Positions 12,758 through 50,808 of a stretch of DNA of 64,000 nucleotides are shown piece by piece (position 1 is the first letter of the stretch; every line of letters starts with the position of its first letter). Origin of the DNA: an uncultured Planctomycetales bacterium (lineage in GTDB: Bacteria > Omnitrophota > Gorgyraeia > Zapsychrales > Fredricksoniimonadaceae); assembly GCA_964520655.1 (NCBI GenBank), contig CAZFNI010000012.1, forward strand, positions 1,917 through 65,916, in the 5' to 3' direction. The notes below the pieces were generated by a model, which was not told the origin of the DNA, ran no database searches, and saw only the letters and a program-made list of their open reading frames with translations. The translations under genes were made by a program, and so were the position numbers.

Positions 12758-13144
12758 TTATATCCAATTGCAGATAAAAGCGTTCTTCAAATGTCTAATG
12801 TCAGGTCCGGAGCCTGAATGAAGAATAGAAACCACATCAAAAAGGCAAGCAATGCAGGTTGTTTGAAAACATCGTTTAAGGTAAAATTCAGCTAATTTGA
12901 TCAATTTCCGTTGTTTAAAATAATGCACGGCTTCAAACGGCTGGCCACAGGCAATTGAGGCGCGGGTTTTAACTTCGACAAACACAAGCGTCTGATCATC
13001 ACGAGCAATAATGTCGATCTCCCCCATACGGCAGCGGAAATTCCGCTCAACGATCTGGTAACCCAGCTTCGTCAAATATTGACAGGCCGCATCTTCACCG
13101 GATCTTCCAAGATTTTTTCGCGTCATAAGCCCAAAGTTGACCAA
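12758..13144 (-). CDS. yraN: YraN-family (UPF0102) predicted endonuclease
   Basis: 128 aa. GEDAACQYLTKLGYQIVERNFRCRMGEIDIIARDDQTLVFVEVKTR is the characteristic YraN/UPF0102 core. Confidence 0.75.
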   Translation of the reverse strand: MVNFGLMTRKNLGRSGEDAACQYLTKLGYQIVERNFRCRMGEIDIIARDDQTLVFVEVKTRASIACGQPFEAVHYFKQRKLIKLAEFYLKRCFQTTCIACLFDVVSILHSGSGPDIRHLKNAFICNWI

Positions 13145-14253
13145 AGCCCCGCTTGCTCACGGTTTTGCTCAACCATTTTCCTTTGTTCAGCATGCGCGCT
13201 ATCAGTAATATCACCCAACGTTTTCCCATATTCAGCTGTTGCACCAGCCTTTTCAAAGAAAGATTTCCTCTCACCTTCCAAAAAATTAATCCCTTTTGTA
13301 ATGATATTTTTGTAGCTGTTAGCAATATTCGGATGATCACGGTAGCGACCAAGCCAATCGATCGCCTCATTATACTGATCCATCGTCCAATACACTGAAA
13401 GACCCGACACAATATCTTCAATATGGTTCCTTAATTTTTTCTCATCAAAAGACAACAACAACAAAACTTCCGCCTCAGTAAATGGCTTTGCGGGTAACGA
13501 CAATGCATTAAGCAACTCACCATCTACCATATGCTTGGTCTTAAGCTCATCAATGGCTTGTTCAAGCATCGTCCTAGCCTCCTGCCGATGATCTTTCAAC
13601 ACTCGCCCGATCCTTTTAGCTGGGCCGCTCATCATCAATCCCGTTTTGGTGATCTTCCAGACCGGCAGGATCGCCAAGATCCTCTCTTTACGTTCCCCCC
13701 TGAGATTAAACGCGTCAAATAAATTCCCGAACAGATTATCCCCGTCGGAATATTGAAGATACTGGAACGCGCTGCCGCCCTGGCAGCTATCAAGAAGACC
13801 CGCCAGATCATTGCGGAATTCATGCCGGACAAAATATTTATCTCGCAAACAATCGAAAACTGACTGTTTACGCAATGCATTCAGATCCTGACGGTCATTT
13901 GATTCCAGATCCCCTAACCGCTTTTGGTCCATTGCGTACCTTAAATAGGCGATCGTCTGAAAATACTTATACACATCTGCCTCTGCCGGCGCAGCATACG
14001 ACCACAATAGTAACGGTGCATCGCCAATGCGCCTGCGTACGCTCCTGCGGCTTAATTGTTCGATCGACATCTCTATCTGCGCATCTCTATTCAACGTTGC
14101 TGAAAGCATCGGATGGATACCTTTTTCAGAATAGCGGTAAGGAGTTTTATAGGCTGTCATGAAACCCCCGTCGTCCTTATCCACTGCAAAAATATCCGTC
14201 CAGCCATTGATCGGCGCGATCAACATCAATATCCAGACTAAAATCCTCATCAA
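13123..14253 (-). CDS. Secreted hypothetical protein, last gene of the T4SS/T4P operon (possible Tra accessory protein)
   Basis: 376 aa. The N-terminal signal peptide is MMRILVWILMLIAPINGWT. No motif was recognised. It overlaps the upstream gene by 4 nt (ATGA). Confidence 0.5.
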   Translation of the reverse strand: MMRILVWILMLIAPINGWTDIFAVDKDDGGFMTAYKTPYRYSEKGIHPMLSATLNRDAQIEMSIEQLSRRSVRRRIGDAPLLLWSYAAPAEADVYKYFQTIAYLRYAMDQKRLGDLESNDRQDLNALRKQSVFDCLRDKYFVRHEFRNDLAGLLDSCQGGSAFQYLQYSDGDNLFGNLFDAFNLRGERKERILAILPVWKITKTGLMMSGPAKRIGRVLKDHRQEARTMLEQAIDELKTKHMVDGELLNALSLPAKPFTEAEVLLLLSFDEKKLRNHIEDIVSGLSVYWTMDQYNEAIDWLGRYRDHPNIANSYKNIITKGINFLEGERKSFFEKAGATAEYGKTLGDITDSAHAEQRKMVEQNREQAGLWSTLGL

Positions 14254-14696
14254 TTCCTCATTAATTGTCCCATGAGCACTTCCTGGGCCTTGATGATCTG
14301 CTCAGTTTTTTTCTCTTGCCATCTTAAATATTCCCTGGCGTTTTCCTGATTTGGCACATTCAAAAGATTCAGCACAGGCTGCGGCGGCTGATAATAAGTT
14401 ATCTTCCCGTTAGCATCAACCATCGGCTCCCGCCAATCGATCAAAGCTTTATCAGCCAAAAGATCAGACTTTTCTTTTTTCTCAAAATACTCCAAATGTT
14501 GTAAATGATAATAATCATTAGCGGAGGCTTTGTAAGGATGAACGATCAATATTACTATAAAGATGAGGGAACAGCAGTTTTGCAACATTGTATGAACCTC
14601 CAGAAGATCCAGGAGAATTCTTCCTCCTTGTTGCTCCGCTCGCCAACGGCATTCTTTGCCACCCAAAACCGGGGATCCTGACCCAACGGCATGCAT
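14250..14696 (-). CDS. Small secreted hypothetical protein (likely true start near 14588)
   Basis: An internal Met begins a signal-peptide-like segment, MLQNCCSLIFIVILIVHPYKASA. The upstream 5' extension overlaps the TraU-like gene out of frame. The mature part is about 90 aa with no recognised motif. Confidence 0.35.
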   Translation of the reverse strand: MHAVGSGSPVLGGKECRWRAEQQGGRILLDLLEVHTMLQNCCSLIFIVILIVHPYKASANDYYHLQHLEYFEKKEKSDLLADKALIDWREPMVDANGKITYYQPPQPVLNLLNVPNQENAREYLRWQEKKTEQIIKAQEVLMGQLMRN

Positions 14697-15310
14697 TTCT
14701 GTTGATCAGGCTCAACCATCTGGATCTTATCCTGCCAGCGGTTAATGGAAAAAAGGATCGGAGCTTGTGAAATATGCCCGCTCATAAGACCTCCGGCGCT
14801 GATACCTCTTAACGCGATCAATGCTGACGATGCCGCAGGACTGTAATGGCTGACAAATCCTGTTCGAGGATACACAGGCCCCCAATTGCCCACAAATTCA
14901 CGAGCAGTTGTCGTCTCTTGACGCCATTGACGGCTGTCCATCTCAGACCTATATCTCAGCCCCACAGCTGTATTCGTCAATGAGCCACATAAGACCATTT
15001 GTTCAATTTGTTTTAATGGAAAATCATACACATGTGCATCATGAAACCGCAGATTACTGCCGCTTAAAGCATTCAAGCTTGCCTTACGAGCGATCGTATG
15101 GATCACCAATGATGGTTCATAATACGAGATCCAAACTCCCGGAATATCCCCCACCATACAGGCCCCATGACTTTTAAGCTGCCAGCAACTTTGGTCAACA
15201 CGCTCAACCGCGTGCACCAGATTGATCCCGTCCCCCTTTATCTCATCCGCAGAATATGCAAGCACATGTGCGGCTAATATAAACCCTATCAGGATAATTA
15301 TCTTTTTCAT
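14555..15310 (-). CDS. traU: TraU-like F-type T4SS periplasmic protein (shortened relative to F-plasmid TraU)
   Basis: 251 aa with a signal peptide. Remembered F-plasmid TraU motifs are present in order: SCWQL (F: ICWSC), GVWISYYEPSLV (F: GLAIGYWEPMAL), HDAHVYDFPL (F: HVHWYKYPL), MVLCGSL (F: TSLGCLEGG) and YRSEMDSRQW (F: YLSEIDPTW). About 70 aa of the F protein are missing. Confidence 0.5.
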   Translation of the reverse strand: MKKIIILIGFILAAHVLAYSADEIKGDGINLVHAVERVDQSCWQLKSHGACMVGDIPGVWISYYEPSLVIHTIARKASLNALSGSNLRFHDAHVYDFPLKQIEQMVLCGSLTNTAVGLRYRSEMDSRQWRQETTTAREFVGNWGPVYPRTGFVSHYSPAASSALIALRGISAGGLMSGHISQAPILFSINRWQDKIQMVEPDQQKCMPLGQDPRFWVAKNAVGERSNKEEEFSWIFWRFIQCCKTAVPSSL

Positions 15311-16170
15311 AACTTCATAATGAAAGCTAATGCGTAAAACGGAGGCACATGACTATCAGGAATGATCGGATGCGTATGCGACTGATTGCCCCCCGTATCT
15401 GAAGTCAATGAACTGATCTGACCTGTCATGACTGGAGAACTGTGACCATCATATCGGCTCCCCAGCCAGGGCGTTTCATTATACGCATGATGGTGGGCTG
15501 GCATCTCCGCGATAGTCAACGCATGTGGCCCTGTTTCACTGCCATGATCGTGAGAAATACTACCGCCGCTTTTTTCTAATTTCCCCTGAAGATTGGTTTT
15601 ACTGACCCCACCCTCATCTTGCCGCGAGCCAACGATAAATTTATCGCGAAGATCCGGTGTACCATTCTGCCCATCACACAAAACCCAACCTAAAGGAATG
15701 CTGGCGATCGACCCAGACCACGCCACGATCACACCGGAAGCAATTTCATCTTGATCATTAGCCCCGGTAACACTACTCACAACATCTCCCGCGAATGACG
15801 CTTGCAGCAAACGCGAATTAATCATTGGCACTAAATTTAACGGCACTTGAACACTGACACTCATTTTTTTCTCATCAAACATCACTTGGTAGGGATGCCC
15901 CCAGGGGTTAAGTAAAGACCACAGCGGACTTAAGTAACCATCTATTTGCATCTGTTTTAAATCCGTTGGCCATTCATGATGATCCCTGTGATACTTTCTG
16001 CCAGCTGCCTGGATAACCCCCACCTCGGCAATTGTTTTCTCACCGGCACGGATCTCGACAGCGCGGACCATCACCGGCAATACCGCCGTTGTCAACAAAG
16101 CAACAATGCCCATGACGATCGCCAACTCAACTAACGAAAAACCATTTTTTCCTAGAATGTCGCGGTCCAT
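15307..16170 (-). CDS. Type IV prepilin-like protein, large (minor pilin or PilV-like tip-adhesin candidate)
   Basis: 287 aa. The N-terminus MDRDILGKNG|FSLVELAIVMGIVALLTTAVLPV is a class III signal peptide with Gly-1, Phe+1 and Glu+5. A large C-terminal globular region follows. Confidence 0.6.
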   Translation of the reverse strand: MDRDILGKNGFSLVELAIVMGIVALLTTAVLPVMVRAVEIRAGEKTIAEVGVIQAAGRKYHRDHHEWPTDLKQMQIDGYLSPLWSLLNPWGHPYQVMFDEKKMSVSVQVPLNLVPMINSRLLQASFAGDVVSSVTGANDQDEIASGVIVAWSGSIASIPLGWVLCDGQNGTPDLRDKFIVGSRQDEGGVSKTNLQGKLEKSGGSISHDHGSETGPHALTIAEMPAHHHAYNETPWLGSRYDGHSSPVMTGQISSLTSDTGGNQSHTHPIIPDSHVPPFYALAFIMKL

Positions 16171-16601: not shown

Positions 16602-16618
16602 ACTATCCTCCTTGTGTT

Positions 16619-17815
16619 TTAACCTCCAGCGATCTGATTCAAACTGCCGTAAACAGGGATCAGAAACGCAAAGGCAATGGTAACTAAAAATACGGCACCA
16701 ATGATCAATAGTGCCGGTTGAAGCAAAATCACCGCACGGTCTATCTGTTCGTTCACTCGCTTATTTAGATATTCTGACAAATTCAGGCAATACTGAGGAA
16801 GTCTCGCCATTTCCTCTCCGCGACGTATCGTCATCACGATCAGCGGAGAGAAAAATCGATCAGCTCCCAACGACTCCCACAATGTCCCGCCTCCAAAGAT
16901 ATAGTCCCTGCAACCATAAAAATGTCCGCTGACCGCATTGTTGTTATTAGCATGCAGATCGTCGATACCCTTAATGATCGATGTCCCATTACGCATCAGG
17001 ATCGACAGGTTCAAAAAATAGTACGCCAGATCCGCTTCTTTATTTATGCGCCCCCATATGGGTAAACGATAAACAACAAATTCTCGAATTCGTTTATTAT
17101 TGAATATGAACCCAGCAACCGAGACCAACACTGCTCCTATGATCAAAACTAATAATGCACCATATTGCCTCAGCCACAAGGTCGCAGCAATGATCACACC
17201 CGTTGTTCCATGAACGCGCGTTGATTCAGGCAATAACTGAGCTAATCGCGGTACCACATAAACCCCCACAAACAACATGACGGCACATAATAAGCAAAAT
17301 ACGATCGATGGATATACCAACGCCTCTCTTAATCGTCCCGACACTTCCTCCTGACGTTTAAAGTAATGTGCCAGCATCCTCAACGATCCCTTAAGTTCCC
17401 CACTTTGTTCTCCGCTTTTAATAGTCACCGTCACGATCCAGGGAAATGATTTTGTCGATGCAAAAGCGTCTGCCAAACCTTTCCCTTTGCTGACCTCACT
17501 TTTTATCCCTTCTATTGCGCCCATCAAAACTGCTGATAATTGCACGCTGGATACGGATGCCAGTATCTGGTTGATACTCATCCCTGTCTCATGCATATTC
17601 GCCATATCTTCAAAGAATCCCGACATGATCTTGATAGAGATCCGCTTCGCCCTCTTCAACTGAAGAAATGATCGTACCCAATCCATATAAACAATGATCA
17701 CGTCGATCTTATTGTTTTTTAAATAGCCCAAAACGCTTTCCTTATTCCCCTTAATCACTCCAGAGATTTCTTGACCTTGAGGGGTTATGCCTGAATATTT
17801 CCAATATCCCATCAT
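16619..17815 (-). CDS. GspF/PilC-family inner-membrane platform protein
   Basis: 398 aa. It has two repeated cytoplasmic domains and three TM segments, which is the T2SSF architecture. It immediately follows the GspE-like ATPase, with a 4-nt overlap. Confidence 0.8.
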   Translation of the reverse strand: MMGYWKYSGITPQGQEISGVIKGNKESVLGYLKNNKIDVIIVYMDWVRSFLQLKRAKRISIKIMSGFFEDMANMHETGMSINQILASVSSVQLSAVLMGAIEGIKSEVSKGKGLADAFASTKSFPWIVTVTIKSGEQSGELKGSLRMLAHYFKRQEEVSGRLREALVYPSIVFCLLCAVMLFVGVYVVPRLAQLLPESTRVHGTTGVIIAATLWLRQYGALLVLIIGAVLVSVAGFIFNNKRIREFVVYRLPIWGRINKEADLAYYFLNLSILMRNGTSIIKGIDDLHANNNNAVSGHFYGCRDYIFGGGTLWESLGADRFFSPLIVMTIRRGEEMARLPQYCLNLSEYLNKRVNEQIDRAVILLQPALLIIGAVFLVTIAFAFLIPVYGSLNQIAGG

Positions 17816-19419
17816 CCCAGCACCCTCACCGCTTCTTGCGGTGATATTGCCCCTTGTTTGACCATCATTTTTAATTGCTCAAACATCGCCCCCTCTATAC
17901 CATTTTCCCTGACATGTATTTTTATACCGCGAATATCACCCTCCAATAACATGGAATCAACTGGATCACCGCATTCCAAAACGCTAGCCACTACTGTCCG
18001 CCCCTTATAACCGTCATTACATCCAGAACAACCACCAGCAACTGAAACATCCTCTAACTCTTCCACAAATTTAAACTCACTGCTTGTCCACACAACATCC
18101 TGGCAATGCAGTCTCTGCTTACACAAAGGGCAAAGCAGTCTAACCAAGCGCTGAGAAATAATCATGGATAACGTCGAGGCCATATAGGCATACGGAATAC
18201 CGAGATCATGTAATCGCAATACAGCGTCGAACACCTGATTGGCATGCAGCGTTGCAAAAACCTTATGACCTGTCATCGCCGCCCGGATGGCCTCTTGCGC
18301 GGTAAGATCATCCCTGATCTCCCCGATCAGCATGATATTAGGATCATGTCTTAAGAAAGCTCGAACAGCATTACTGAACGTGATCAGCCGTTTGTCATTA
18401 GTCTGTACCTGAGTCATCAGCGTGTGATGCATTTCAACGGGATCCTCAATAGTCACGATCTTGCGCTCAATGGATTTAATATAATTGAGCATGGCATAAA
18501 GCGTCGTTGTCTTGCCGCAACCAGTTGGCCCAACGATCAGCGCCATCCCTTCCGGTTTAGAAAGCATTGACTTGATCCTTTTCCATAAATAATTGGGGTA
18601 TCCAAGAGAGATCAAGTCGATCGAAGATTTATTTCTATCTAACAAACGCAGCACCAGGGAACTGCCATTGACACAGGGTATGTGCGACACCCTGACATCG
18701 ATATTTTCCCCCCTGTTTTGATATGTAAATCTCGCGTCATGTAGACTGCTAAAATCACTAATGGTCACATCAGCCCTGTGAAAAACAATATTAACCAGCC
18801 TCCGCTGGAGATCCGAACGTAATACCCCATACGCATGCAGAATCCCGTCGATGCGTAGTCTTACTTCTAACGCTTTTGCCGAAGCCTCAATATGAATATC
18901 CGTAGCACCTCGTTTAAGCGCATCCTGCATGCAATGCTCAAACCAGGACAAAACATTGTCTTCATTGACACCCCCCCTGCAAGATACCGAATTTTCGTCA
19001 GCTGAGACCTTATCAATAGCCCTGCACAATGGCTCTTCAGCAGCCAGCATAAAACACGCTTTCGTGTTTAACTTATCCTGAATGACATCAATTGCTCCTA
19101 AATTATCACTATACGCCATAACAAAAACTATCCCATCATCGGTCTTTGCCGGAAACACTTTATGCTTAACGATAAAATCTTTTCCTAACGATGTGACCAT
19201 TCCCTTATGCGCTTCAAAATTACCCTTATAAACACCCCAGCCTGCTTGCCTAGCTAATGCAGAGATCATCTGTTCCTCATTTATAAAATCATAATCGGTG
19301 AGCAGCTTTCCCAAACGTTGACGAACTCCATGGTTTTGCAGAGACAGACAAAAATCTAATGTTTTTTCATCTATGAGACCTTCCCTTAGCAAAATATTCC
19401 CTAACCGCTGCCCTTCCAT
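17812..19419 (-). CDS. GspE/PilB-family type II/IV secretion ATPase
   Basis: 535 aa. The N-terminus is a T2SSE_N-like domain (LGNILLREGLIDEKTLDFCLSLQ...). The Walker A is GPTGCGKTT, with Asp and His boxes present. The C-terminus carries a tetracysteine motif, CPLC...C...CSGC. Confidence 0.9.
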   Translation of the reverse strand: MEGQRLGNILLREGLIDEKTLDFCLSLQNHGVRQRLGKLLTDYDFINEEQMISALARQAGWGVYKGNFEAHKGMVTSLGKDFIVKHKVFPAKTDDGIVFVMAYSDNLGAIDVIQDKLNTKACFMLAAEEPLCRAIDKVSADENSVSCRGGVNEDNVLSWFEHCMQDALKRGATDIHIEASAKALEVRLRIDGILHAYGVLRSDLQRRLVNIVFHRADVTISDFSSLHDARFTYQNRGENIDVRVSHIPCVNGSSLVLRLLDRNKSSIDLISLGYPNYLWKRIKSMLSKPEGMALIVGPTGCGKTTTLYAMLNYIKSIERKIVTIEDPVEMHHTLMTQVQTNDKRLITFSNAVRAFLRHDPNIMLIGEIRDDLTAQEAIRAAMTGHKVFATLHANQVFDAVLRLHDLGIPYAYMASTLSMIISQRLVRLLCPLCKQRLHCQDVVWTSSEFKFVEELEDVSVAGGCSGCNDGYKGRTVVASVLECGDPVDSMLLEGDIRGIKIHVRENGIEGAMFEQLKMMVKQGAISPQEAVRVLG

Positions 19420-19420
19420 C

Positions 19421-19951
19421 TTAACCCCCGATCAAAATAACCTTCTCTTTGCCATCTTTTGTTCTGAGCACCGCCTTATCATCATCGATCCTCACTACGG
19501 TCACGTCACCACGAAGCATCTGGCCCGCTTTTGCTGACACTCTTACACTGTGATCCAACAGCAATCCTAGACGTTCATTCCCAATACGAACAATACCTTG
19601 CAGCTTGATAGGAAAATTTTCCGTATCCTGCTCTTTTTTCTCATTCAACATGGACGTAAAATTATCCTCCTGATCTAATTTTTTGATCCTGGAACGCAGA
19701 TCAGCGCGCTGTAGATCAAGATTTAAGAGTTTTATTTCCCGCATCCGCTTGTTTTCCTGATCAATAAAATCGTCTACATCCTGACGATCTGAGCGCACCG
19801 ATCCTTTTGAGACCATCTGGTCCACCATAGACACTTCCTGTGCATACACATTGCTAAACTCAAGAACAAATACCAGCAAACAAACTAATATACTAAGCCC
19901 CATACACACCCCCATTGATCTGCAGCATGTTATCTTTGAACGCCACGTCAT
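19421..19951 (-). CDS. PilP/GspC-like periplasmic pilus-assembly protein (N-terminal TM, coiled coil, C-terminal beta domain)
   Basis: 176 aa. There is one N-terminal TM segment. The C-terminal segment LQGIVRIGNERLGLLLDHSVRVSAKAGQMLRGDVTVVRIDDDKAVLR resembles the PilP/HR domain. The assignment is by architecture only. Confidence 0.35.
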   Translation of the reverse strand: MTWRSKITCCRSMGVCMGLSILVCLLVFVLEFSNVYAQEVSMVDQMVSKGSVRSDRQDVDDFIDQENKRMREIKLLNLDLQRADLRSRIKKLDQEDNFTSMLNEKKEQDTENFPIKLQGIVRIGNERLGLLLDHSVRVSAKAGQMLRGDVTVVRIDDDKAVLRTKDGKEKVILIGG

Positions 19952-21538: not shown

Positions 21539-21539
21539 T

Positions 21540-23400: not shown

Positions 23401-25819
23401 TTATGGCCTCAATAAGATCACCGTTCAAAGATTCCACCTTCTGCCACAAATAATCATTATTCCTTGGTTCTGAATTAGCTACCCAATACAAGAATGGATC
23501 AGGAACAAGACGAATGACGCCAGTAGAATTCTCCGACATCACTAAACACTCAGAATATTGGCCTTTAATTGTTTTAATGGATTTAAGTAATTGGATTTTT
23601 TCATCATCGAACGACAATGTCTCTTTAAGCAAATCAATAACTGCTGGATCTTGTTTGAGAAAGATCTTATTGGCCGCATTCGCAATGATCGCCATCCCGC
23701 TTTCTACTCGTGTTAGATCAGCAATCTCCTGTGTTATCGCTATGGTTGAGCAGCGGTATTTTCGGAATGTTTTAAAAGCATTGGTGATAAAATCCGACGT
23801 GTTCTTGACTTTTAATAATGACCACGCCTCATCTATCAATAAATATTTTCGTTTGATCCTCATTGAATCACTGGACACAAAATTTGTCATAAAGAACATT
23901 AGATTCAATAAAACGGCTAACTGCAAATCAGGATATGAACTCAAATTGGCCAATTCAAATACCACAAAACGGGTATTTATCGTGAATTGATTTGGACCGT
24001 CAAAAAATCGGCCATACGGCCCCTTGTTTGTAAACGGGGTCAATCGCAATGCCAGTGTCGGCCCCATCAATGAATTTATACCGCAGCGTTCATTAAAATA
24101 ACTGTCATTAAGAACATTCGTTACATCACTTAAGAACACCTCTGATTTCTCCTTATTATTCTTATAGGCCGTCATAATTGCTTGCTGCAATAACCCTTCC
24201 TCTTCCCGGCTCAAACGGTATCGGTCATCACCACCGCTGGCCATTTGCGATAGCAACGATAAAAGGAAAGATATATTATCTGGCGTGGGTTCATGAGCAA
24301 ATGGGTTGATTGTGACAGGATCGTTCAAATAAAGACTAATGTATTGGCCATTTAAAACCTGGCAAAGCTTCTTATAAGAATCACCCTTATCCAAAACAAA
24401 AAAATGACTGCCTAAACGATCTGCCTGAAGTATAAAATCATTGATAAAAAAACTTTTTCCGGATCCAGATGCTCCAACAACAATTCCGTGCGGGTTAATA
24501 TTCGAATCAAACATATCAAAGAAAACAACTTCATCCCTGCGGTTAGAATACATTTGTGCCGGAGTTGATGTTCCTTGAAATGCACCGAAGATCGGAAGCA
24601 TATCTGCGACATTAATTGACAACAATCTCCTGGATCTTCTAATAAAATTCTCATAATAGGGATCAAAATTAAGCGGCAAACACGTCAGGAATAATGATGC
24701 CCCTATCAGGTCCTCCTTTATCCCGCCGCATTGATATCGGTTTAGACCATTAATGATCTGATCACCAAGATTTTCAACCTCCTCTGCACTTTCCCCAAAT
24801 ACAACCCAATGGAACCTGGCGTTAATTATCTTTTGTCCTCCCTGATACATAGCCCTAACAACTTCATCCAGTTCCTCCTTTTTCGCAACCTCCTCAACCG
24901 ACTTGTCTCCCAACCAATTCTCCTTATGCATGAATGCAAAGTCCTTCTGGATCTTGATCCGCCTTAAAGCATCTTGAGGATCGGCTGACGTCATATTCAC
25001 CACAAAAAGCATAGACTTGGCCTGGTCAAGCAAACTGAATGGTTGAGCCCCTTGAAATTCCTTAGTAAACATGCCGATCGTTGTATGGGCAGGCATTTCT
25101 TTTAAGCTCACAACCCTCATGTATTGGCCCTCGAAATTAAAACCCTTACCACTTGCTTGCGGTGAATTAAAAAGAACCTGGTCTCTTATATTCAGATTAT
25201 TTTCCAGCCTGACATCTGGCACGCTCATGGAACGTTTGGGATTCATTAATTGATATAATAATTGTGTTAGCTCCTGCTCTAAGACAGGCTTAACAGATAC
25301 GCCGGAAGTCTTGAGTAGCCCTCCCAAAAGAGAAGTATGTTGCTCAAATACCTTTTTATGCTCACACAACTCATTTTCAATCCCTTGTGAATGCTTTTTC
25401 CACACAGGGAAGAATCTGATCGTGATATACACATCAATTGCTCTCGTAAAACAGCGCTTCCCATTGTTTTTCTGACGTTTGGTTGCATAAAAAGATGTTG
25501 TCGTTACACCTTGAGCATTCTCTTGGAATTGATCATATTGATCATTCTTGTCCTTACTATTAACATTGACATTCATGATCATTTGACAGGCTAAACGGTC
25601 ATGCGGGAGCCTGGTCAAAACAGTCTGCCAATGCTGCACCAGAATATTCATATCCCTTTGTGTTCTTCCTTCTGAATCAACAAGATTTATCTTCCAAACT
25701 TTTCCCATACTCCCATCAGATAATAAACAAACGTCATCGCAAAACTCAACATACGGCAAAAGATCGACAAAACTCATGCCTTCAGAGAACAATGCCTCTA
25801 TATTCTTGTAACGCAACAC
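23363..25819 (-). CDS. traC: TraC/VirB4-family T4SS ATPase
   Basis: 818 aa. The Walker A is GIVVGASGSGKSFFIND. The Walker B / 'DEAW' motif is RKYLLIDEAWSLL. The size and domain order are VirB4-like. Confidence 0.8.
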   Translation of the reverse strand: MLRYKNIEALFSEGMSFVDLLPYVEFCDDVCLLSDGSMGKVWKINLVDSEGRTQRDMNILVQHWQTVLTRLPHDRLACQMIMNVNVNSKDKNDQYDQFQENAQGVTTTSFYATKRQKNNGKRCFTRAIDVYITIRFFPVWKKHSQGIENELCEHKKVFEQHTSLLGGLLKTSGVSVKPVLEQELTQLLYQLMNPKRSMSVPDVRLENNLNIRDQVLFNSPQASGKGFNFEGQYMRVVSLKEMPAHTTIGMFTKEFQGAQPFSLLDQAKSMLFVVNMTSADPQDALRRIKIQKDFAFMHKENWLGDKSVEEVAKKEELDEVVRAMYQGGQKIINARFHWVVFGESAEEVENLGDQIINGLNRYQCGGIKEDLIGASLFLTCLPLNFDPYYENFIRRSRRLLSINVADMLPIFGAFQGTSTPAQMYSNRRDEVVFFDMFDSNINPHGIVVGASGSGKSFFINDFILQADRLGSHFFVLDKGDSYKKLCQVLNGQYISLYLNDPVTINPFAHEPTPDNISFLLSLLSQMASGGDDRYRLSREEEGLLQQAIMTAYKNNKEKSEVFLSDVTNVLNDSYFNERCGINSLMGPTLALRLTPFTNKGPYGRFFDGPNQFTINTRFVVFELANLSSYPDLQLAVLLNLMFFMTNFVSSDSMRIKRKYLLIDEAWSLLKVKNTSDFITNAFKTFRKYRCSTIAITQEIADLTRVESGMAIIANAANKIFLKQDPAVIDLLKETLSFDDEKIQLLKSIKTIKGQYSECLVMSENSTGVIRLVPDPFLYWVANSEPRNNDYLWQKVESLNGDLIEAINVCAKEYPYGLQ

Positions 25820-26226
25820 TATTTAATCTCCTCTTCTACTTCTTCTTTTTTGGGGATAACGACCGAAGAGCTTGACCTTTGCACTTCTTGATCATCGAAC
25901 CACCTTGGCCCCTGGACCATCACATAGACCCAATGTCCAGATACTAAAACGCCTGTATCATCAACAGAACGGTGATTGGGAACCCAAACTTTCTTTACTA
26001 CAGGGGGTTTGATAACAGGAACATAAGGTTTCACATACCCAAACACTTTTTGCTCCCTAAAACGCTCTGCCACAAATTTTTCTACATCTTCCTTAGCTTC
26101 TCGCATGCTATGATGATACATATCTTCCATAGGCACTCTGCTGTTAGAACTCTGCCTGATCTGCCGATGCCCGCAGCCATTAATTAAGAACATCAATGTG
26201 ATTAACATCACGACGTAATAGACCAT
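25819..26226 (-). CDS. TraV-like (VirB7-like) outer-membrane lipoprotein
   Basis: 135 aa. It has a lipobox, LINGC. It is small and Pro/Val-rich, and lies between the TraB and TraC homologues as in F-like tra operons. Confidence 0.35.
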   Translation of the reverse strand: MVYYVVMLITLMFLINGCGHRQIRQSSNSRVPMEDMYHHSMREAKEDVEKFVAERFREQKVFGYVKPYVPVIKPPVVKKVWVPNHRSVDDTGVLVSGHWVYVMVQGPRWFDDQEVQRSSSSVVIPKKEEVEEEIK

Positions 26227-27337
26227 CGATCATCACTCCTTTTTGAACGACGAAATTAATACTAGTGCCACTGGGCACATGCACAGCAGGTATGATATTT
26301 TGCGTTTGTTTATCGTAATACTGCGACAACTCAGCGGCGCTTTTGGAAAGTCCGGAAAACATGGCGTATTTACCAGCATCCCCCGTGACATTACGTTCAA
26401 CATTACCAAATCGTCCAGATACAGATGTCTGCTCGCTATCAGCCAACGCAGATGACCCTCCAGCCATAAATCCGCCCATAAAAGCCAGTGCCAAAGCTTT
26501 TCCTGTACTGTGCACCAACTGTCCATGTATCCCTAACTCTCCATGACGGTCCGTTACATAACCAATCTCCTGTTCTTTCTCAAAAACCTTACCGTCAGGT
26601 TGAACATAAGAAATCGCAATGATCTGGATTAAGGCACGTTGAGAATTGATGTCCCCTATAGCCTTCCCCAAAGCAAATGCACCCTTTAACGGTATACGCG
26701 CATTGTTGGGCCCGTAAAATGCCTCATCAAGCGTGATCAATACTGGTAATGGACTATTGACATCAACTGACGCATATACTCCTGTTAACAATGTACCTTT
26801 ACAGAAAGAACCGATCGGTAAATACACATCATACTTTTTATTAATAACCCCTCTTACCGGAGCAATCTTCAATTCATAAGATGATTCTTTTGAAATATCA
26901 GAAGAAATTGAAAGCTTACCCAGATCTTCTTTAATTGTTGACAATGTGCCACTGATGTTGAGCTGTTCTTTTTTGTATTGCTCATCTGCCTGTTTTATAC
27001 CTTTGATCTGTTCCTCCATCTCTTTTATCCTGTCTTCAAAATCATAATAATTCTTTTGGAGGCCTTTCATAACTTCCAAACGTTCTGTGTCTCCAACTTT
27101 GACACCTTCATCATCAATGCGCAGTTGCGTACCCTGCTGTTTCGACTTTTCTAAAGAATGTTCATCGCTAGACCATATATAAGATCCAACAACCACTATC
27201 AACAAGACCACACCATAAATGATTAGCGGATTCTTATGCTGAATCGACTTGAGTATTTCAAATAGTTCGTTCATTTGCCTGTATGATAAATATTGTTGTG
27301 TGATCTCTTGCTTGACCCTCTGGCGCAAGGACATCAT
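26180..27337 (-). CDS. traB: TraB/VirB10-family T4SS protein
   Basis: 385 aa. The order is N-terminal TM, coiled coil, then a C-terminal beta-barrel domain. VirB10-like motifs are present: GTLLTGVYASVDVNSPLPV, IPLKGAFALGKA and IPAVHVPSGTSINFVV. Confidence 0.65.
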   Translation of the reverse strand: MMSLRQRVKQEITQQYLSYRQMNELFEILKSIQHKNPLIIYGVVLLIVVVGSYIWSSDEHSLEKSKQQGTQLRIDDEGVKVGDTERLEVMKGLQKNYYDFEDRIKEMEEQIKGIKQADEQYKKEQLNISGTLSTIKEDLGKLSISSDISKESSYELKIAPVRGVINKKYDVYLPIGSFCKGTLLTGVYASVDVNSPLPVLITLDEAFYGPNNARIPLKGAFALGKAIGDINSQRALIQIIAISYVQPDGKVFEKEQEIGYVTDRHGELGIHGQLVHSTGKALALAFMGGFMAGGSSALADSEQTSVSGRFGNVERNVTGDAGKYAMFSGLSKSAAELSQYYDKQTQNIIPAVHVPSGTSINFVVQKGVMIDGLLRRDVNHIDVLN

Positions 27338-27914
27338 CCAAGGATGCAGCGGCTATGATATTCTCAAGACTTAATTGATCTAGAGGGACATTGACCCTAC
27401 GATCAGATTTATTCCTTGCCGTTATGCCATACACCCTAAATTGAGGAAAATCATACGCCAACTCAAAATCTAAAGTAATGTGTGAGTTTTCAAGTACTAT
27501 TTGGCGCTGAACCTTGATCTTTACTGCCCCGGCTGGCTCATTTCCCTGCAGCAAAATTTTCATGATATCGATTGCACTAATCCCGCTCTGATATTTACTA
27601 GAGTTCACACTATTGCCATTGACAACCACATTAAGATCATGCTGTGTAGAAACCTTTAAATTGATCGGATAAGATTTTCCTGATACTCCTTTAACAAAGA
27701 CGTCTGAGGGCGCTTCCGTTTTAGGCAAAATAAAAAGGGAATTATCCATGGCCTCAACTAGTAGGGAATCACTCGCCCCTCCCTTGATTACTTGGGCAAT
27801 ATTCTCTGGAAATGAGACCTCCGAAACTTTACCAACTTCTACATGAACACTTGTTACTTCTTCAGCAAATACTGTAGTAGCCAACATTAAAATAGCGATA
27901 AGGAGTGCATTCAT
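27258..27914 (-). CDS. TraK-like (VirB9-like) periplasmic/OM core protein
   Basis: 218 aa with a signal peptide and a predicted beta-rich fold. It is positioned between the TraE and TraB homologues. Confidence 0.4.
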   Translation of the reverse strand: MNALLIAILMLATTVFAEEVTSVHVEVGKVSEVSFPENIAQVIKGGASDSLLVEAMDNSLFILPKTEAPSDVFVKGVSGKSYPINLKVSTQHDLNVVVNGNSVNSSKYQSGISAIDIMKILLQGNEPAGAVKIKVQRQIVLENSHITLDFELAYDFPQFRVYGITARNKSDRRVNVPLDQLSLENIIAAASLDDVLAPEGQARDHTTIFIIQANERTI

Positions 27915-28567
27915 ATACTTAGCTCCTGATCAATTGACGCCACGATCAAACCCAAAGGATTCTGTTCCGTTGGAGCCACTACATTGATAAGAATCTTAAA
28001 GGTTATATCCTGCTCTTTTACCATTTGCTTCCCCATGAATAACGTCTTTTTAGTCTTGATGGTCACTTTATAATCACCTCTTTCTTTCTTCACCGAAGGC
28101 TCATCAATGACAGTCAATAATGAAGATATTTCACTTTGTTTTATCTCCTCTAGATCTTTACTTAAGCGCGTGCGCGTTTTTGACAATACATATGGCGACA
28201 TAAATCGCTGCGCGCGTGCATAAGCATTTGACGCCGTCACCGGATTGAAATTATTCCAATCCATGATCCATTTGGACACAAAGGTCGATACAACCATAGA
28301 CATATCCGATATTGGCAAAGCCACCCCTGCTTGATATACATTAGGAACATAATAAATAGATTTAGGCTTAACCACTGTCCACATAATGATCCCCGCAAAA
28401 GCCAAACTGACAATCCCAAGCAATAGACAAACGTAAAGCATCCGCTGATACATCAATTCTGATCTTGTCCATCGTTCCACAAACTGAGTACTTTTAGAAT
28501 GTTGTGCTTGCATATGATCCATAATGAGAAACTCCCCTAGGTGACGGAGGCAAACCTGGAAGTCCAA
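27911..28567 (-). CDS. TraE-like (VirB8-like) bitopic T4SS protein (probable true start at an internal Met, ~180 aa)
   Basis: It has a single N-terminal TM segment (LYVCLLLGIVSLAFAGIIMW) followed by a periplasmic domain. It is F-TraE-sized when started at the internal Met. The upstream extension overlaps traL. Confidence 0.45.
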   Translation of the reverse strand: MDFQVCLRHLGEFLIMDHMQAQHSKSTQFVERWTRSELMYQRMLYVCLLLGIVSLAFAGIIMWTVVKPKSIYYVPNVYQAGVALPISDMSMVVSTFVSKWIMDWNNFNPVTASNAYARAQRFMSPYVLSKTRTRLSKDLEEIKQSEISSLLTVIDEPSVKKERGDYKVTIKTKKTLFMGKQMVKEQDITFKILINVVAPTEQNPLGLIVASIDQELSI

Positions 28568-28784
28568 GGCCCTGAGAATATAACCAATGCATCAAATAGC
28601 CAGGCGGTTTTCCACTTTTCAATCTGGATATAAGTATCCAACATATGATCCCTATCGCTCCGGGAACATAAGGTTCAAACAACAAACCGCCAATACCAAT
28701 GACCAATACCACCGCCGCAAGGTCCTCTTGTTCTAGTCCAAAGAATGTTTGTGGCTTATCTATTGTTCGATAGCATGTGTGCAT
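28494..28784 (-). CDS. traL: TraL-like (VirB3-like) T4SS protein
   Basis: 96 aa. YRTIDKPQTFFGLEQEDLAAVVLVIGIGGLL parallels the F TraL YRFPKTLD..IIGLPLDEAIPAAVLLL. KSGKPPGYLMHWLY parallels KKGRSPYWLYNYCY. Confidence 0.55.
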   Translation of the reverse strand: MHTCYRTIDKPQTFFGLEQEDLAAVVLVIGIGGLLFEPYVPGAIGIICWILISRLKSGKPPGYLMHWLYSQGLGLPGLPPSPRGVSHYGSYASTTF

Positions 28785-28787
28785 GTA

Positions 28788-29069: not shown

Positions 29070-29070
29070 C

Positions 29071-30261: not shown

Positions 30262-30413
30262 AAACGAGGAAAAACTATTGGGGGAGGTTATTACACTATC
30301 TGACTTAGATTCGTTGGGAGAAACGAAATATTAACTAATAAGCAAATTATATTGATTATTACACAAATGTCAAGAAATTTAATATCATTTGCGCAAAATA
30401 AAAAGAAGCCTTT
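30262..30413 (-). promoter_or_regulatory. AT-rich 152-nt intergenic region, probable promoter of the T4SS/T4P super-operon
   Basis: This is the only sizeable gap upstream of the 21-gene block. It is AT-rich (…aaatttaatatcatttgcgcaaaataaaaag…). Confidence 0.3.
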
Positions 30414-31046
30414 TCATCTATTTGAAGCACCCATCAAATCATTTATAAAATCTAGATTCACATTCACACCTAATTCTTCTGCCTTTCTAACATCTGCCCA
30501 AGCCTTGTCGTATTCCTTTAAATGATAATAAGCTACCGCTCTTAGATTATATGCTTTCCCATATTCAGGTTTTAAGACGATGGCGCGGGAAAGATCATTC
30601 ACCGCTTCATGCAGCTTTTCCTCTTTAGCCAGTGTTTGCCCTCGATTAAAAAAAGCCTGAGGGTCATTGGGATTTAAATCAACTGCTCGGGAGAAATCTT
30701 GGAGAGCCTCTTCACTCCTGCCCTGTTGAGCAAGAACTACACCGCGATTGTTATATGCTTGCGCGAACAACGGATCGATCTCAATGACTTTGTTATATTC
30801 CTCTAAAGCAAGCTCTGGTGAATTTTGTTTATAATATAGGTCGCCCTGCTTTTTGTGTTCCAAGGAGGTATCCGCCAACACAGCAGAAATATTAAATAGG
30901 AATGAAAACAGCAGCATTAAAGATATGCGATCATTCATCATCTGCCTATTGTTGGGGATGGTGGAATTGGGTTTCGTAAAGACGACGGTACAGAGGGCAG
31001 GAAAACAGCAGGTCATCATGAGGTCCGCAGCCAACGATCTTTCCAC
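30414..31046 (-). CDS. Secreted TPR-repeat protein (probable start at MMNDRISLMLLF..., near 30941)
   Basis: It has a signal peptide, then 4 TPR units (AQAYNNRGVVLAQQGRSEEALQDFSRAVDLNPNDPQAFFNRGQTL...). Confidence 0.6.
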   Translation of the reverse strand: MERSLAADLMMTCCFPALCTVVFTKPNSTIPNNRQMMNDRISLMLLFSFLFNISAVLADTSLEHKKQGDLYYKQNSPELALEEYNKVIEIDPLFAQAYNNRGVVLAQQGRSEEALQDFSRAVDLNPNDPQAFFNRGQTLAKEEKLHEAVNDLSRAIVLKPEYGKAYNLRAVAYYHLKEYDKAWADVRKAEELGVNVNLDFINDLMGASNR

Positions 31047-32835
31047 CCTCGATCACAACGATCTTGTCCGCTTTCATGATCGTCGACAAACGATGAGCAA
31101 TGGCGATGACCGTCCTGCCTTGCATGAGCTCATCAAGCGCCTGCTGGACATATTTCTCTGATTCAGAATCCAAAGCACTTGTCGCTTCATCCAATATCAG
31201 GATCGGCGGGTTTTTCAAGATAGCCCTTGCAATCGTTAAACGCTGTTTCTCCCCACCGGATAATCGAAATCCGCGGTCACCCACCATTGTCTCGTAACCC
31301 TTGGGCATTTTCTCAACAAAATGACTGGCGTATGCATGCTGGGCAGCAATTTTGATCTGATCATCCGTCGCATCAAATGTGCCGTATGCGATATTGTTAC
31401 GAACCGTATCATTAAAAAGAACAGCCTCCTGAGTCACAATGCCGATCTGGCCCCGCAGCGATCTAAAGGACAATTCTTTCACATTTACTCCGTCAAACAG
31501 CACATTACCGTTTGAAGCGTCATAGAAACGAGGGATCAGATTGACCAGCGTTGACTTCCCGCTGCCTGTCGGGCCGACAATGGCAATGAGCTCGCCCTTT
31601 TTGATCTCAAGATTGATATCCGCCAGAACAGGGTCCCCTGACTTGTCATAGCTAAAGGTCACGTGGTCAAACACAACTTTCTGCTTAAGGGCATCCGCCT
31701 CTTTGGCATTTTCTTTTTCGACAACGGTCGGCTTAGCATCAAGCACCTCATAGATGCGCTCATTCGCGGCCAGCGCTTGCTGGACAATCGCTTGAACGTT
31801 AGCTAACTTCTTAATGGGCCGTATGACCTGAAGGATCGACACAAAAAAGAATAAAAATACCCCAAAAGATAACTTACCTAAAAGAACATCTTTACCCAAA
31901 ATCATCAAGATGACCATGCCGCAGATCGCACCAGCAATCTCTGTGATCGGTCCGACCATCATCATACTGATCAATGATTTCATCTTGACCTTGTAAAAAC
32001 CTTGATTTTGCTGACGGAAACGTTCGATCTCATATTTCTCCGTGCAAAAGGCTTTTAGAATACGCACTCCGGAGATAGTCTCCAATAAGTGTGAACTAAT
32101 GTCAGCGATCTTCTCCTGGATATTCTTCGATAATTTTCTCAAGCGTTTAGAAACAACGGCCATCGGCCAGCCTATTAGCGGGAACATGATAAAAACGATC
32201 ATTGTCCCCTTGAAATTGACTGTTAATGAAAATGATATGAACACCAGGATCAGAAAAGGCTGACGGAATAAGTCTGTGATCGCATAAGACACGGCATTCT
32301 CGATCGCGGCGACATCGTTCGTGATGCGGGAGACCAATTCCCCTGTACGCTTTTTAGAGAAATAATCCAGTGACAGCGTCTGAATGCGTTCGAATAATCG
32401 TGAACGCACATCCCTCATGACACTTTGGGCAATATCATTCATTAAATAATCACTTAAGAACAACACAGCCTGTTTGACTAAGAACATCGCCAAAAATGTG
32501 ACAGGAATAAGCTTGAACAAGGTCATGGCATCGGCTGTATTAAGCCAATTGACGATCTCATTAAAAAACGCAGGCACTTTATTGGGCAAAATGATCTTTT
32601 TATTGGTAAAAATACGGTCAATGACCGGCAGCATGAAGGACAGCTGTACGCCTTCAAAAAGGGAAGACAAAAGGATAAAGAACAACGCAAGACTAAAACG
32701 CTTTTTGTACCCGCTGACAAAGGAGAGAAGTTTGAGATAATTCTTCATAGGAGATTTGAATTTAGCATGGGGTTTGACATTTGTCGAGGGCTTTGTTAGT
32801 ATCCTTTTCATGCAAAAAATCAACATAGCCCTCAT
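30946..32835 (-). CDS. msbA: MsbA-like lipid A/lipid export ABC transporter (permease + ATPase)
   Basis: It has 6 TM helices. Walker A is GPTGSGKST, the ABC signature is LSGGEKQR and Walker B is ILILDEATSALD. Confidence 0.8.
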   Translation of the reverse strand: MRAMLIFCMKRILTKPSTNVKPHAKFKSPMKNYLKLLSFVSGYKKRFSLALFFILLSSLFEGVQLSFMLPVIDRIFTNKKIILPNKVPAFFNEIVNWLNTADAMTLFKLIPVTFLAMFLVKQAVLFLSDYLMNDIAQSVMRDVRSRLFERIQTLSLDYFSKKRTGELVSRITNDVAAIENAVSYAITDLFRQPFLILVFISFSLTVNFKGTMIVFIMFPLIGWPMAVVSKRLRKLSKNIQEKIADISSHLLETISGVRILKAFCTEKYEIERFRQQNQGFYKVKMKSLISMMMVGPITEIAGAICGMVILMILGKDVLLGKLSFGVFLFFFVSILQVIRPIKKLANVQAIVQQALAANERIYEVLDAKPTVVEKENAKEADALKQKVVFDHVTFSYDKSGDPVLADINLEIKKGELIAIVGPTGSGKSTLVNLIPRFYDASNGNVLFDGVNVKELSFRSLRGQIGIVTQEAVLFNDTVRNNIAYGTFDATDDQIKIAAQHAYASHFVEKMPKGYETMVGDRGFRLSGGEKQRLTIARAILKNPPILILDEATSALDSESEKYVQQALDELMQGRTVIAIAHRLSTIMKADKIVVIEGGKIVGCGPHDDLLFSCPLYRRLYETQFHHPQQ

Positions 32836-38387: not shown

Positions 38388-38388
38388 C

Positions 38389-50807: not shown

Positions 50808-50808
50808 C

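Follow-up and report, generated by a model that had tools for sequence, protein, structure and literature searches.

Several type IV secretion systems (T4SSs) work without a coupling protein or a relaxase, including ComB of Helicobacter, which serves DNA uptake, Ptl of Bordetella, which exports toxin, and VirB of Brucella. The gonococcal genetic island (GGI) of Neisseria gonorrhoeae encodes a chromosomal F-like T4SS for DNA secretion and keeps TraD and TraI. F-like systems can dispense with TraD for pilus assembly, and the functions of TraN, TraW, TrbC and the TraG C-terminal domain include mating-pair stabilisation. There are also conjugative systems with an accessory pilus, and an excerpt of PMC9045228 describes their minor pilin, PilV, as an adhesin that selects the partner cell. 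Here we report an operon on contig CAZFNI010000012.1, from a metagenome-assembled genome (MAG) of a Candidatus Omnitrophota bacterium, in which an F-like T4SS is welded to a secretin pilus. This combination recurs across the phylum, with and without a relaxase-like gene and a type IV coupling protein (T4CP). The sequence that we examined, which we call the window, is 64 kb of this contig; the contig is 68,977 bp long and continues for about 5 kb beyond the window.

The Omnitrophota are widespread, uncultured and ultra-small, and are thought to be predators or parasites; the operon is a concrete and testable candidate for their contact apparatus. The main survey of the phylum covers Tad, type IVa pili, symbiotic ATPases, translocases and giant open reading frames (ORFs), and the terms "T4SS" and "conjug" are absent from it (PMC10066038). 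A preprint on the giant genes deals with a different, type II-like locus with rcpC that adjoins those genes, and likewise makes no mention of T4SS or conjugation genes (bioRxiv 10.1101/2023.11.21.568195). We did not find the operon described in the papers that we searched, which were those naming Omnitrophota, Omnitrophica or Velamenicoccus and included two preprints of 2026 (the genome paper of Candidatus Velamenicoccus archaeovorus fell outside that search).

The operon lies at 13123-30261 of the window on the minus strand. It is a single operon on the chromosome, 17 kb long, with 20 genes that are all intact and that overlap or closely abut one another. The first-pass annotation had drawn the locus at 12758-32835, which is too wide and takes in the flanking yraN and msbA genes. 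Transcription is served by a sigma-70-type promoter in a 152-bp gap before traG_N, the only intergenic gap at the operon head. This is the sole 12/12 match in 18.9 kb on both strands, where by our own rough estimate 0.007 would be expected by chance. The gene order is TraG_N, a VirB2-like pilin, TraL, TraE, TraK, TraB, TraV, TraC, a 152-aa lipoprotein and a secretin, and then 384-, 167- and 176-aa proteins, an ATPase, a platform protein, a pilin, a minor pilin, TraU and two ORFs of 148 and 376 aa, so that the pilus module is nested between traC (with its lipoprotein gene) and traU. From its gene content we believe that the operon is most likely a contact apparatus for meeting other cells, switched by cyclic di-GMP (c-di-GMP), and not a self-transmissible conjugation system. 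We put the probability of this reading at about 0.55.

The genes that a conjugative element would need for DNA processing, coupling and integration are missing from the window operon. We scanned with Pfam every ORF taken as a gene across the window, and with NCBIfam the proteins of the locus. Long ORFs occupy nearly all of the 64 kb, and in bases 1-1425 the scan covered one 115-aa ORF. The scanned window ORFs gave no match to a Pfam relaxase family of any MOB class, to a VirD4/TraD coupling protein, or to an integrase or recombinase. When the T4CP and the relaxase-like protein of relatives were used as queries, tblastn against the window was negative, and hidden Markov models (HMMs) of the same two proteins did not match its six-frame translation. 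As a control, the T4CP HMM found T4CPs in 21 other loci, including relatives and distant or outgroup conjugative systems; the relaxase-like HMM matched related operons only. The first-pass annotation had recognised no relaxase, coupling protein or integrase, and these searches bear it out. There are also no att-like direct repeats bounding the locus, as the only repeats that span it are at chance level (19 nt or shorter), and the Pfam-annotated flanks of five related operons hold no integrase. The operon has no VirB11. Without a relaxase and a T4CP it would be unable to nick DNA or to hand substrates from the cytoplasm to the channel, and therefore the operon alone would not be self-transmissible.

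We next consider where else the operon occurs. Our database searches reach only relatives that share 5-residue words with the query, and within that reach TraC homologues at 44-69% identity come almost all from Candidatus Omnitrophota MAGs, plus the complete chromosome of V. archaeovorus LiM. Outside the phylum TraC identity is at most 32%; plasmid TraC, which is of the F type, reaches at most 29%, and a scan of viral contigs gave no relative above 29%. By tblastn and ORF-level comparison, the colinear operon is present in about 45 Omnitrophota loci or genomes. A neighbour-joining tree of TraC gives three clades, which we call the window clade, the Velamenicoccus clade and clade I, each at 99-100% bootstrap. 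The window clade, the Velamenicoccus clade and locus L018 come together at 94%, and L018 itself is placed with the window clade at 46% and with the Velamenicoccus clade at 35%. All 13 loci of the window clade and all 14 of clade I are without a relaxase and a T4CP in the operon. The window-clade loci are only 55-69% identical in TraC, yet their architecture is colinear.

The surroundings of the operon are those of an ordinary chromosome. In the window the stretch from metH to a DUF3352 gene (41.9-64 kb, in the right flank) keeps its gene order in contigs of a close relative, where protein identity averages 78%, with PPDK at 91% and a sigma factor at 97%, and this supports a chromosomal locus. 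Among related operons the neighbourhoods differ and are made up of housekeeping genes, among them TamB, VTT and others, two-component systems with FeoAB, KdtA-LpxK, and TPR genes. Lipid-A genes are near the operon both in the window (msbA and lpxB) and in L004/L005/L040 (kdtA and lpxK). The operon itself is present in the nearest relatives (L001 and L002) and widely in the phylum; synteny of the core flanks is kept only with the nearest relatives. Because the operon is intact and colinear across deep clades, and sits in differing housekeeping contexts without an integrase, we do not consider it an integrative and conjugative element (ICE) or a plasmid. This pattern, with the operon's own strong promoter and the absence of att repeats and of a nearby tRNA, points to a machine that has long been resident in the host.

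A decaying remnant of an ICE or plasmid, which has lost its mobility genes and is heading for loss, would also have no relaxase, T4CP or integrase. A GC content at third codon positions (GC3) below that of the flanks, a truncated TraF, and toxin-antitoxin genes that adjoin or sit inside related operons could all be told as parts of such a history. However, all 20 genes are intact and their catalytic motifs are conserved, the promoter at the operon head is a perfect consensus, att repeats are absent and the neighbourhoods are housekeeping. The stripped architecture is moreover colinear throughout the window clade, at the divergence given above, and in a second deep clade. Given this conservation, we regard decay as very improbable and as the least likely of the explanations.

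In V. archaeovorus, its clade and L018, the stretch from traG_N to the pilin gene holds two to three genes that the window lacks. One encodes a 754-aa VirD4-type T4CP, which is above threshold for PF12696, PF10412 and PF02534. Another encodes a 254-aa protein for which PF13814 (Replic_Relax) is the only Pfam match; it is found in 4/9 orthologues (best E-value 3e-6), and the V. archaeovorus protein scores 24.2 bits (gathering 25.3). The alignment of this protein has an invariant PDG...EVE..YK pattern behind a helix-turn-helix (HTH)-like N-terminus, and a PDB profile search with it returned nothing. PF13814 has been placed in the PD-(D/E)XK superfamily (PMC3424549), and it stands in Pfam for the MOB_C relaxase superfamily, members of which pair with VirD4-type coupling proteins (PMC5357655). 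By gene content, the Velamenicoccus-clade version would qualify as a conjugative system and the window version would not. Since the operons of the Velamenicoccus clade and L018 encode a MOB_C-like protein and a T4CP, the window operon may be a derived, stripped version. Searches of 5.8 billion proteins gave members of the operon-linked T4CP family from the Velamenicoccus clade (66-100% identity) and L018 alone, and the next-best matches are from Firmicutes at about 40%. This affinity hints at a later insertion, in which case the T4CP would be a gain.

These relatives raise the case that the window operon is still conjugative or mobilising, with a T4CP and a relaxase that come from another part of the genome, or from a co-resident element, and use the channel in trans. 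The channel family would be compatible, as the same operon carries both genes in relatives; a prepilin peptidase is also supplied from elsewhere, and only one 69-kb contig of the genome is known. Against this, the narrow range of the T4CP family stands beside a TraC search that recovered all three clades, and an HMM search found no T4CP within about 10 kb in any of the 27 loci of the two T4CP-less clades. The place where relatives hold the extra genes is also seamless in the window, as the stop codon of traG_N overlaps the start codon of the pilin gene and leaves no gap. We therefore think that transfer in trans is rather unlikely.

Other genes are found in or beside related operons, and we mention them here for completeness. 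In V. archaeovorus (CP019384.1, L081/L096, ~595.6-625.2 kb) the operon has a 63-aa Imm_superinfect-like gene that is conserved in its clade, an NYN-domain gene between traL and traE, and a pair of a TacA-like antitoxin and a GNAT acetyltransferase between the minor pilin gene and traU; upstream there are HTH_17 and ParB_N genes and no integrase. L082 (2934-4999 and 9427-10014), the nearest long relative, has two toxin-antitoxin pairs just upstream (MNT/HEPN-type and Phd/ParE-type) and an ORF6N-domain gene between traV and traC, all absent from the window. In five loci of clade I (L026, L029, L031, L033 and L038) a large hybrid histidine kinase/response regulator of PAS-HisKA-HATPase-REC architecture, ~1000-1290 aa, adjoins the operon. 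One locus, L047 (JAVZXS010000008.1), was binned as "Candidatus Micrarchaeia archaeon" and has traL-E-K-B-V-C followed by a secretin; its TraC is 37% identical. As it is implausible for an archaeon to have a secretin, the contig is probably bacterial and was assigned to the wrong bin.

Some related loci contain only part of the hybrid. In L018 the T4SS comes with a relaxase-like gene and a T4CP, and with TraU, TraF, TraH and a thioredoxin-like protein; the secretin and the pilus module are missing. The operon of L004/L005 stops at the pilins and has no traU/F/H. In L028-L030/L036 the secretin and putative alignment genes are retained, with no ATPase or pilins nearby. The block of traC, secretin and pilus genes in L041 and L045 is not preceded by traG_N-traV. 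In L006 (2982-9177) a gene block that includes a resistance-nodulation-division (RND) efflux pump, with an outer-membrane factor and an AcrB-type transporter, is placed between traC and the secretin. Because these variants split them, the T4SS and pilus modules are separable, although traC still stays with the secretin block. The T4SS and the type IV pilus could in that case be two machines that work independently and have only the operon in common. We judge this quite improbable, as the pilus module is at the same site, between the traC-lipoprotein genes and traU, in all three clades, one promoter drives both modules, and traC keeps its link to the secretin block in L041 and L045, where the rest of the T4SS lies apart from it. 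Taken together, the loci form a natural series for the study of repurposed conjugation machinery: T4SS only with the relaxase-like gene and T4CP, the hybrid with both, the hybrid without them, and split operons.

The T4SS genes of the window are identified by the family matches in Table 1 and by comparison with relatives. The TraG_N protein is homologous to a 457-aa V. archaeovorus protein that matches PF07916. The VirB2-like pilin has a signal peptide followed by two hydrophobic helices, and its position is kept in related operons. For TraC the best NCBIfam model is TIGR02746, F-type TraC, at 369 bits (cutoff 567; E-value 4e-110), and the GxxGxGKS and DEAW motifs are invariant over 15 homologues. 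The gene for the 152-aa lipoprotein follows traC in all operon variants, including one without the pilus module. The F-like order TraL, TraE, TraK, TraB, TraV, TraC is present, as seen in comparison with an F-type plasmid; of these, TraL, TraB, TraV and TraC exceed their Pfam thresholds.

The first-pass annotation had recognised none of TraN, TraW, TrbC, the TraG C-terminal domain, TraF and TraH. For the first four this stands, as there was no match in Pfam for the ORFs of the 64-kb window or in NCBIfam for the proteins of the locus. For TraF and TraH it held on a first pass and had to be changed once L018 was compared. The 148-aa ORF aligns with the N-terminal half of a 256-aa TraF-like protein of L018, which matches PF13728 (TraF) at 35.2 bits (gathering 23) and retains a thioredoxin domain with CPYC. 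In hhalign comparisons of the 148-aa family with plasmid TraF, only the thioredoxin part of the L018 protein aligned. TraF thus appears to be reduced to its N-terminal part in the window. The 376-aa protein is homologous to a 422-aa protein of L018 that reaches PF06122 (TraH) at 25.8 bits (gathering 25). The TraH match is absent in the other 7 members of the family, hhalign of the family against plasmid TraH was negative, and a single-sequence AlphaFold model had a pLDDT (the model's own confidence score) of 35 and was unusable. We consider it possible, and weakly so, that this protein is TraH-like.

The pilus module begins with the secretin, for which the best NCBIfam model is MshL at 216.7 bits (cutoff 250); the PilN-type model scores 136.6 bits, also below its cutoff, and HofQ lower. 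In Pfam the secretin (PF00263), the ATPase (PF00437) and the platform protein (PF00482) all exceed their thresholds. The next three proteins are conserved and are suggestive of a putative alignment subcomplex, which their sizes and topology fit. The family of the 384-aa protein occurs in 33 related loci, has no Pfam, NCBIfam or PDB profile match, and gave a single-sequence AlphaFold model that was unusable at a pLDDT of 41. A profile of the 176-aa family built from 16 orthologues has sub-threshold matches to PilP (2ivw and 4av2_M; E-values 0.18-0.37) and GspC (7oio; 0.94) in the same region.

The pilus ATPase is closest among solved structures in the PDB to PilB (251 bits) and GspE (239), with the type IVb protein BfpD at 99. 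The N-terminal 60 residues contain two tandem 24-residue MshEN motifs of the RLGxx(L/I)(L/I)xxG...Q type, RLGNILLREGLIDEKTLDFCLSLQ and RLGKLLTDYDFINEEQMISALARQ, and the protein scores 44.6 bits (cutoff 38) against NF053729, the model of c-di-GMP-binding MshEN. These motifs suggest that the pilus may be switched by c-di-GMP. We had considered identity with the type IVb thin pilus of R64/IncI from the gene order and the weak PilS matches, and rejected it. Because the ATPase is nearest PilB/GspE and the secretin scores best with MshL, we assign the module to the PilB/GspE/MshE kind.

The nearest relatives have a major pilin with 71-79% identity to that of the window. In the minor pilin, which is chimeric, a prepilin N-terminus is followed by residues 132-287 that match phage tail fibre chains (PDB 9qgo_A and 9nxk_A; E-values 2e-11 to 3e-11), and the L085 orthologue has a strong match to PF07484 (Collar). 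This architecture is that expected of an adhesin. There is no Peptidase_A24 match, and so no recognisable prepilin peptidase, in the window, as the first-pass annotation had said, or in the annotated related operons.

Table 1. Positions in the window of the operon genes, the promoter and the neighbouring genes, with the matches on which each assignment is based.
Feature	Position	Strand	Evidence and remarks
LpxB	33718-34866		Right flank
MsbA-type ABC exporter	30946..32835	-	PF00664 + PF00005; chromosomal flank
TPR protein upstream of promoter	30414..31046	-	TPR families; flank gene
Sigma-70-type promoter TTGACA-16-TATAAT	30346..30373	-	12/12 match; ~85 nt upstream of first gene
TraG_N/VirB6-like polytopic membrane protein, 396 aa	29071..30261	-	PF07916 32.4 bits (gathering 36.1)
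VirB2/TrbC-like T4SS pilin, 93 aa	28788..29069	-	Weak PF04956, E-value 0.0017
TraL (VirB3-like)	28494..28784	-	PF07178 31.3 bits and TIGR02762 32.2 bits, both above cutoff
TraE/VirB8-like	27911..28567	-	Weak DUF2895, TIGR02761; orthologues in relatives match PF05309 TraE
TraK/VirB9-like	27258..27914	-	Weak DUF3438, TIGR03749, VirB9, TraK_Ftype; position conserved
TraB/VirB10	26180..27337	-	PF03743 TrbI 75.7 bits; NF010289 F-type TraB E-value 2e-21
TraV lipoprotein (VirB7-like)	25819..26226	-	PF09676 24.2 bits (gathering 21); lipobox LINGC
TraC/VirB4 ATPase, 818 aa	23363..25819	-	PF19044, PF11130; Walker A and B intact
Conserved small lipoprotein, 152 aa	22942..23400	-	Lipobox; no Pfam/NCBIfam match
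Secretin, 506 aa	21540..23060	-	PF00263 119 bits
384-aa protein, one central membrane helix	20384..21538	-	PilM-PilN/GspL-like by position and topology
Small bitopic protein, 167 aa	19893..20396	-	PilO/GspM-like by position; no Pfam/NCBIfam match; family kept in relatives
Small protein, 176 aa, C-terminal beta domain	19421..19951	-	PilP/GspC-like, sub-threshold
Pilus extension ATPase, PilB/GspE/MshE class	17812..19419	-	PF00437 317 bits; CxxC...CxxC site
Pilus platform protein T2SSF/PilC/GspF	16619..17815	-	PF00482 126.6 bits, two domains; GspF E-value 8e-47
Major prepilin-type pilin, 149 aa	16152..16601	-	Weak PilS, Bundlin, N_methyl; class III signal
Minor pilin/putative adhesin, 287 aa	15307..16170	-	N_methyl/TIGR02532, class III signal, weak Collar match
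TraU-like, 251 aa	14555..15310	-	PF06834 59.8 bits (gathering 26.5)
Short TraF-like N-terminal protein, 148 aa	14250..14696	-	Likely start Met36, base 14588
Last operon gene, 376 aa, signal peptide, possibly TraH-like	13123..14253	-	Homologous to 422-aa protein of L018
YraN/UPF0102 flank gene	12758..13144	-	PF02021 105.9 bits; 22-nt overlap with last operon gene
3197-aa protein with signal peptide	3066..12659	-	No Pfam family

Under the reading that we prefer, a contact apparatus, the operon without relaxase and T4CP would still assemble an envelope-spanning core and two kinds of filament. c-di-GMP would activate the pilus ATPase, and the pilus would carry its tail-fibre-like adhesin to the surface of another cell, one that these ultra-small bacteria use as host or prey. 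The contact would then be stabilised by the T4SS core together with the pilus, and any cargo would need a means of recruitment other than a VirD4-type coupling protein. According to PMC13463995, conjugative pili are suppressed in their accumulation by VirD4 proteins.

The same parts could instead make a DNA-uptake (competence) apparatus, an option that the first-pass annotation had named, in which the secretin and pilus capture DNA and a T4SS without a T4CP imports it, as in ComB. A secretin with a pilus is the usual DNA-capture device in Gram-negative competence, and the T4SSs of the ComB type lack T4CP and relaxase as this one does. The lower-scoring HofQ matches of the secretin, and matches of the ATPase and platform protein to the ComGA and ComGB models below their cutoffs, would also fit. 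However, there is no ComEC, ComEA, DprA or ComM in the window or adjoining the related operons, the tail-fibre-like receptor-binding domain of the minor pilin points to cell surfaces and not to DNA, and the F-specific pilus-assembly genes TraU/TraF/(TraH) are retained. We find DNA uptake decidedly doubtful for these reasons.

A delivery system for effectors or toxins that works without a coupling protein, as Ptl of Bordetella or VirB of Brucella do, would inject or release proteins into host or prey cells. The full channel set of VirB2-B4 and B6-B10 is present, and the proteins of the operon evolve faster than those of the flanks, which is what machinery for host interaction would be expected to do. 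The phylum is inferred to be predatory or parasitic, and V. archaeovorus kills Methanothrix by contact (PMC10066038, PMC13153191). What speaks against delivery is that the operon has no conserved companion gene that would be a candidate for an effector, chaperone or immunity protein and that no component for substrate recruitment was identified, so we think it unlikely.

A bolder version of the contact apparatus would be a composite nanomachine specific to the phylum, in which the F-like T4SS is physically coupled to a c-di-GMP-switched, tail-fibre-tipped pilus, docks onto cells, including archaea, and pushes macromolecules into them. The cargo would be nucleoprotein in the Velamenicoccus clade, by way of the MOB_C-like protein and the T4CP, and independent of a T4CP in window-type operons. 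We offer this as speculation and would not bet on it. Intron RNA of the predator has been found inside dead prey cells of V. archaeovorus, with no transfer route named (PMC13153191), and if the composite machine were real its nucleoprotein cargo could be that route.

Several of our results weigh against a contact apparatus that has long been resident and is not used for transfer. Some of the assignments are below family thresholds or positional, namely TraG_N, the pilin, TraE, TraK, TraH and the alignment proteins. The pilins need a prepilin peptidase and the window holds none, so this must be encoded elsewhere, and a T4CP or relaxase of another family could likewise be encoded elsewhere in the genome. 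The relaxase-like gene and the T4CP of relatives make it plain that parts for DNA transfer can belong to this operon family. The operon has a GC3 of 0.42 and its flanks 0.53 (Mann-Whitney p = 5e-7), with the T4SS half lowest at 0.39. The operon proteins are on average 49% identical to those of the nearest relative, against 78% for the flanks. This comparison assumes that the PPDK-bearing contigs and L002 are the same organism, an assumption supported by both proteins being on a 420,450-bp contig. In some MAGs, moreover, the operon or traC is present in at least two copies that have diverged from each other (L009/L011/L016/L024, L028/L050 and L021/L052), which could be paralogues, transfer within the phylum, or mixed bins. 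As the operon deviates in GC3 and diverges more than its flanks, horizontal replacement is possible.

The deviation in composition is not shared by the nearest relative, in which the operon and housekeeping genes have nearly the same GC3 (0.38 vs 0.39), and it is the housekeeping genes of the window that are GC3-richer than those of this relative; the window operon is not. Over 14 loci the GC3 of the operon ranges from 0.30 to 0.69 and tracks that of the flanks or host (r = 0.83; mean difference -0.035). The greater divergence of the operon proteins could come from fast evolution of surface machinery or from horizontal replacement within the phylum. The first-pass annotation had proposed a domesticated hybrid of a T4SS and a type IV pilus, which could serve adhesion, delivery of effectors or adhesins, or DNA uptake. 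The chromosomal setting, the lack of mobility genes, the wide colinearity and the tracking of host GC3 across genomes agree with domestication; the relaxase-like and T4CP genes of relatives, the narrow reach of flank synteny, and the deviant GC3 and greater divergence of the window operon qualify it.

The flanks of the operon are as the first-pass annotation had them, with MsbA and LpxB on one side and YraN and the gene of a giant surface-type protein on the other. On the left there are a TPR protein, the 3197-aa protein with a signal peptide, and YraN/UPF0102. On the right, the TPR and MsbA-type genes are followed by a GFO/IDH/MocA oxidoreductase, LpxB and a BatD-BatA/DUF4381/DUF58/MoxR cluster, and farther along by MetH, FeoAB, tRNA-Arg(CCT), PPDK, a sigma-70 factor, a class II aminoacyl-tRNA synthetase, PanB and others. 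The tRNA-Arg(CCT) (50732-50808, between feoA and a TPR gene) is the sole tRNA of the window and is about 20 kb from the locus with no integrase beside it, which agrees with the earlier description. The TPR gene next to the promoter is not conserved with the operon, being missing upstream of most related operons. The yraN gene is also found downstream of the operon in the nearest relative L002 (22303-22478) and in L082. It belongs to UPF0102, a PD-(D/E)XK-type nuclease family, and may be co-transcribed with the operon. The Bat-type cluster that adjoins lpxB is complete (34838-41744, minus strand: MoxR ATPase, DUF58, DUF4381, BatA, BatB, TPR/BatC and BatD). In the 3197-aa protein Gly, Thr and Ser make up ~40% of residues, and there are many repeats around "GNVGIGT" and "GSVLVSSSTGIGTWMAASTL"; no homologue of it adjoins related operons.

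In comparison with known systems, the operon is like the F-type (MPF_F) systems, such as the tra operon of the F plasmid, in the series TraL-E-K-B-V-(pilin)-TraC ... TraU ... TraF-TraH, with TraH only possible in the window, and in TraG_N. For this comparison we used the F-type module of the Rhodanobacter thiooxydans plasmid NZ_CP088924.1. Unlike these systems, the window is without TraN, TraW, TrbC, the TraG C-terminal domain, TraD and TraI. It has only the N-terminal part of TraF, a pilin gene before traL and an inserted secretin-pilus module, it is chromosomal and conserved in its lineage, and its TraC, at no more than 29% identity to plasmid TraC, is under the cutoff of the F-type equivalog.

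The combination of a T4SS with a secretin-dependent type IV pilus is shared with IncI1 R64 (PilL-V), IncI2 TP114 and ICEs of the PAPI-1/SPI-7 type, and the weak PilS and bundlin matches of the window pilin are a further likeness to IncI-type pili. The differences are that the window has an ATPase of the PilB/GspE/MshE kind with MshEN, a secretin nearest to MshL, and pilus genes inside the tra operon, that its T4SS is F-like and not I-type, and that it has no shufflon, relaxase or T4CP. Like ComB, Ptl and the Brucella VirB system, the window operon encodes a chromosomal channel of the VirB2-B10 kind without VirD4 and without a relaxase. Those systems, however, are P-type and have neither TraU/TraF/TraH nor a secretin and pilus module, and the window has no linked toxin or competence genes. 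The GGI shares with it a chromosomal F-like T4SS with a use other than plasmid transfer, but is a horizontally acquired and variably present island without an embedded pilus module.

The closest system is that of V. archaeovorus LiM (CP019384.1, ~602.7-625.2 kb), which has the same operon family in the same order, with proteins 23-49% identical to those of the window and TraC at 49%. It differs in having the 254-aa protein, with its HTH and PD-(D/E)XK (PF13814) parts, and the 754-aa T4CP between traG_N and the pilin gene. Because V. archaeovorus is available as an enrichment culture with omics data, the expression and localisation of its version of the operon are open to a direct check.

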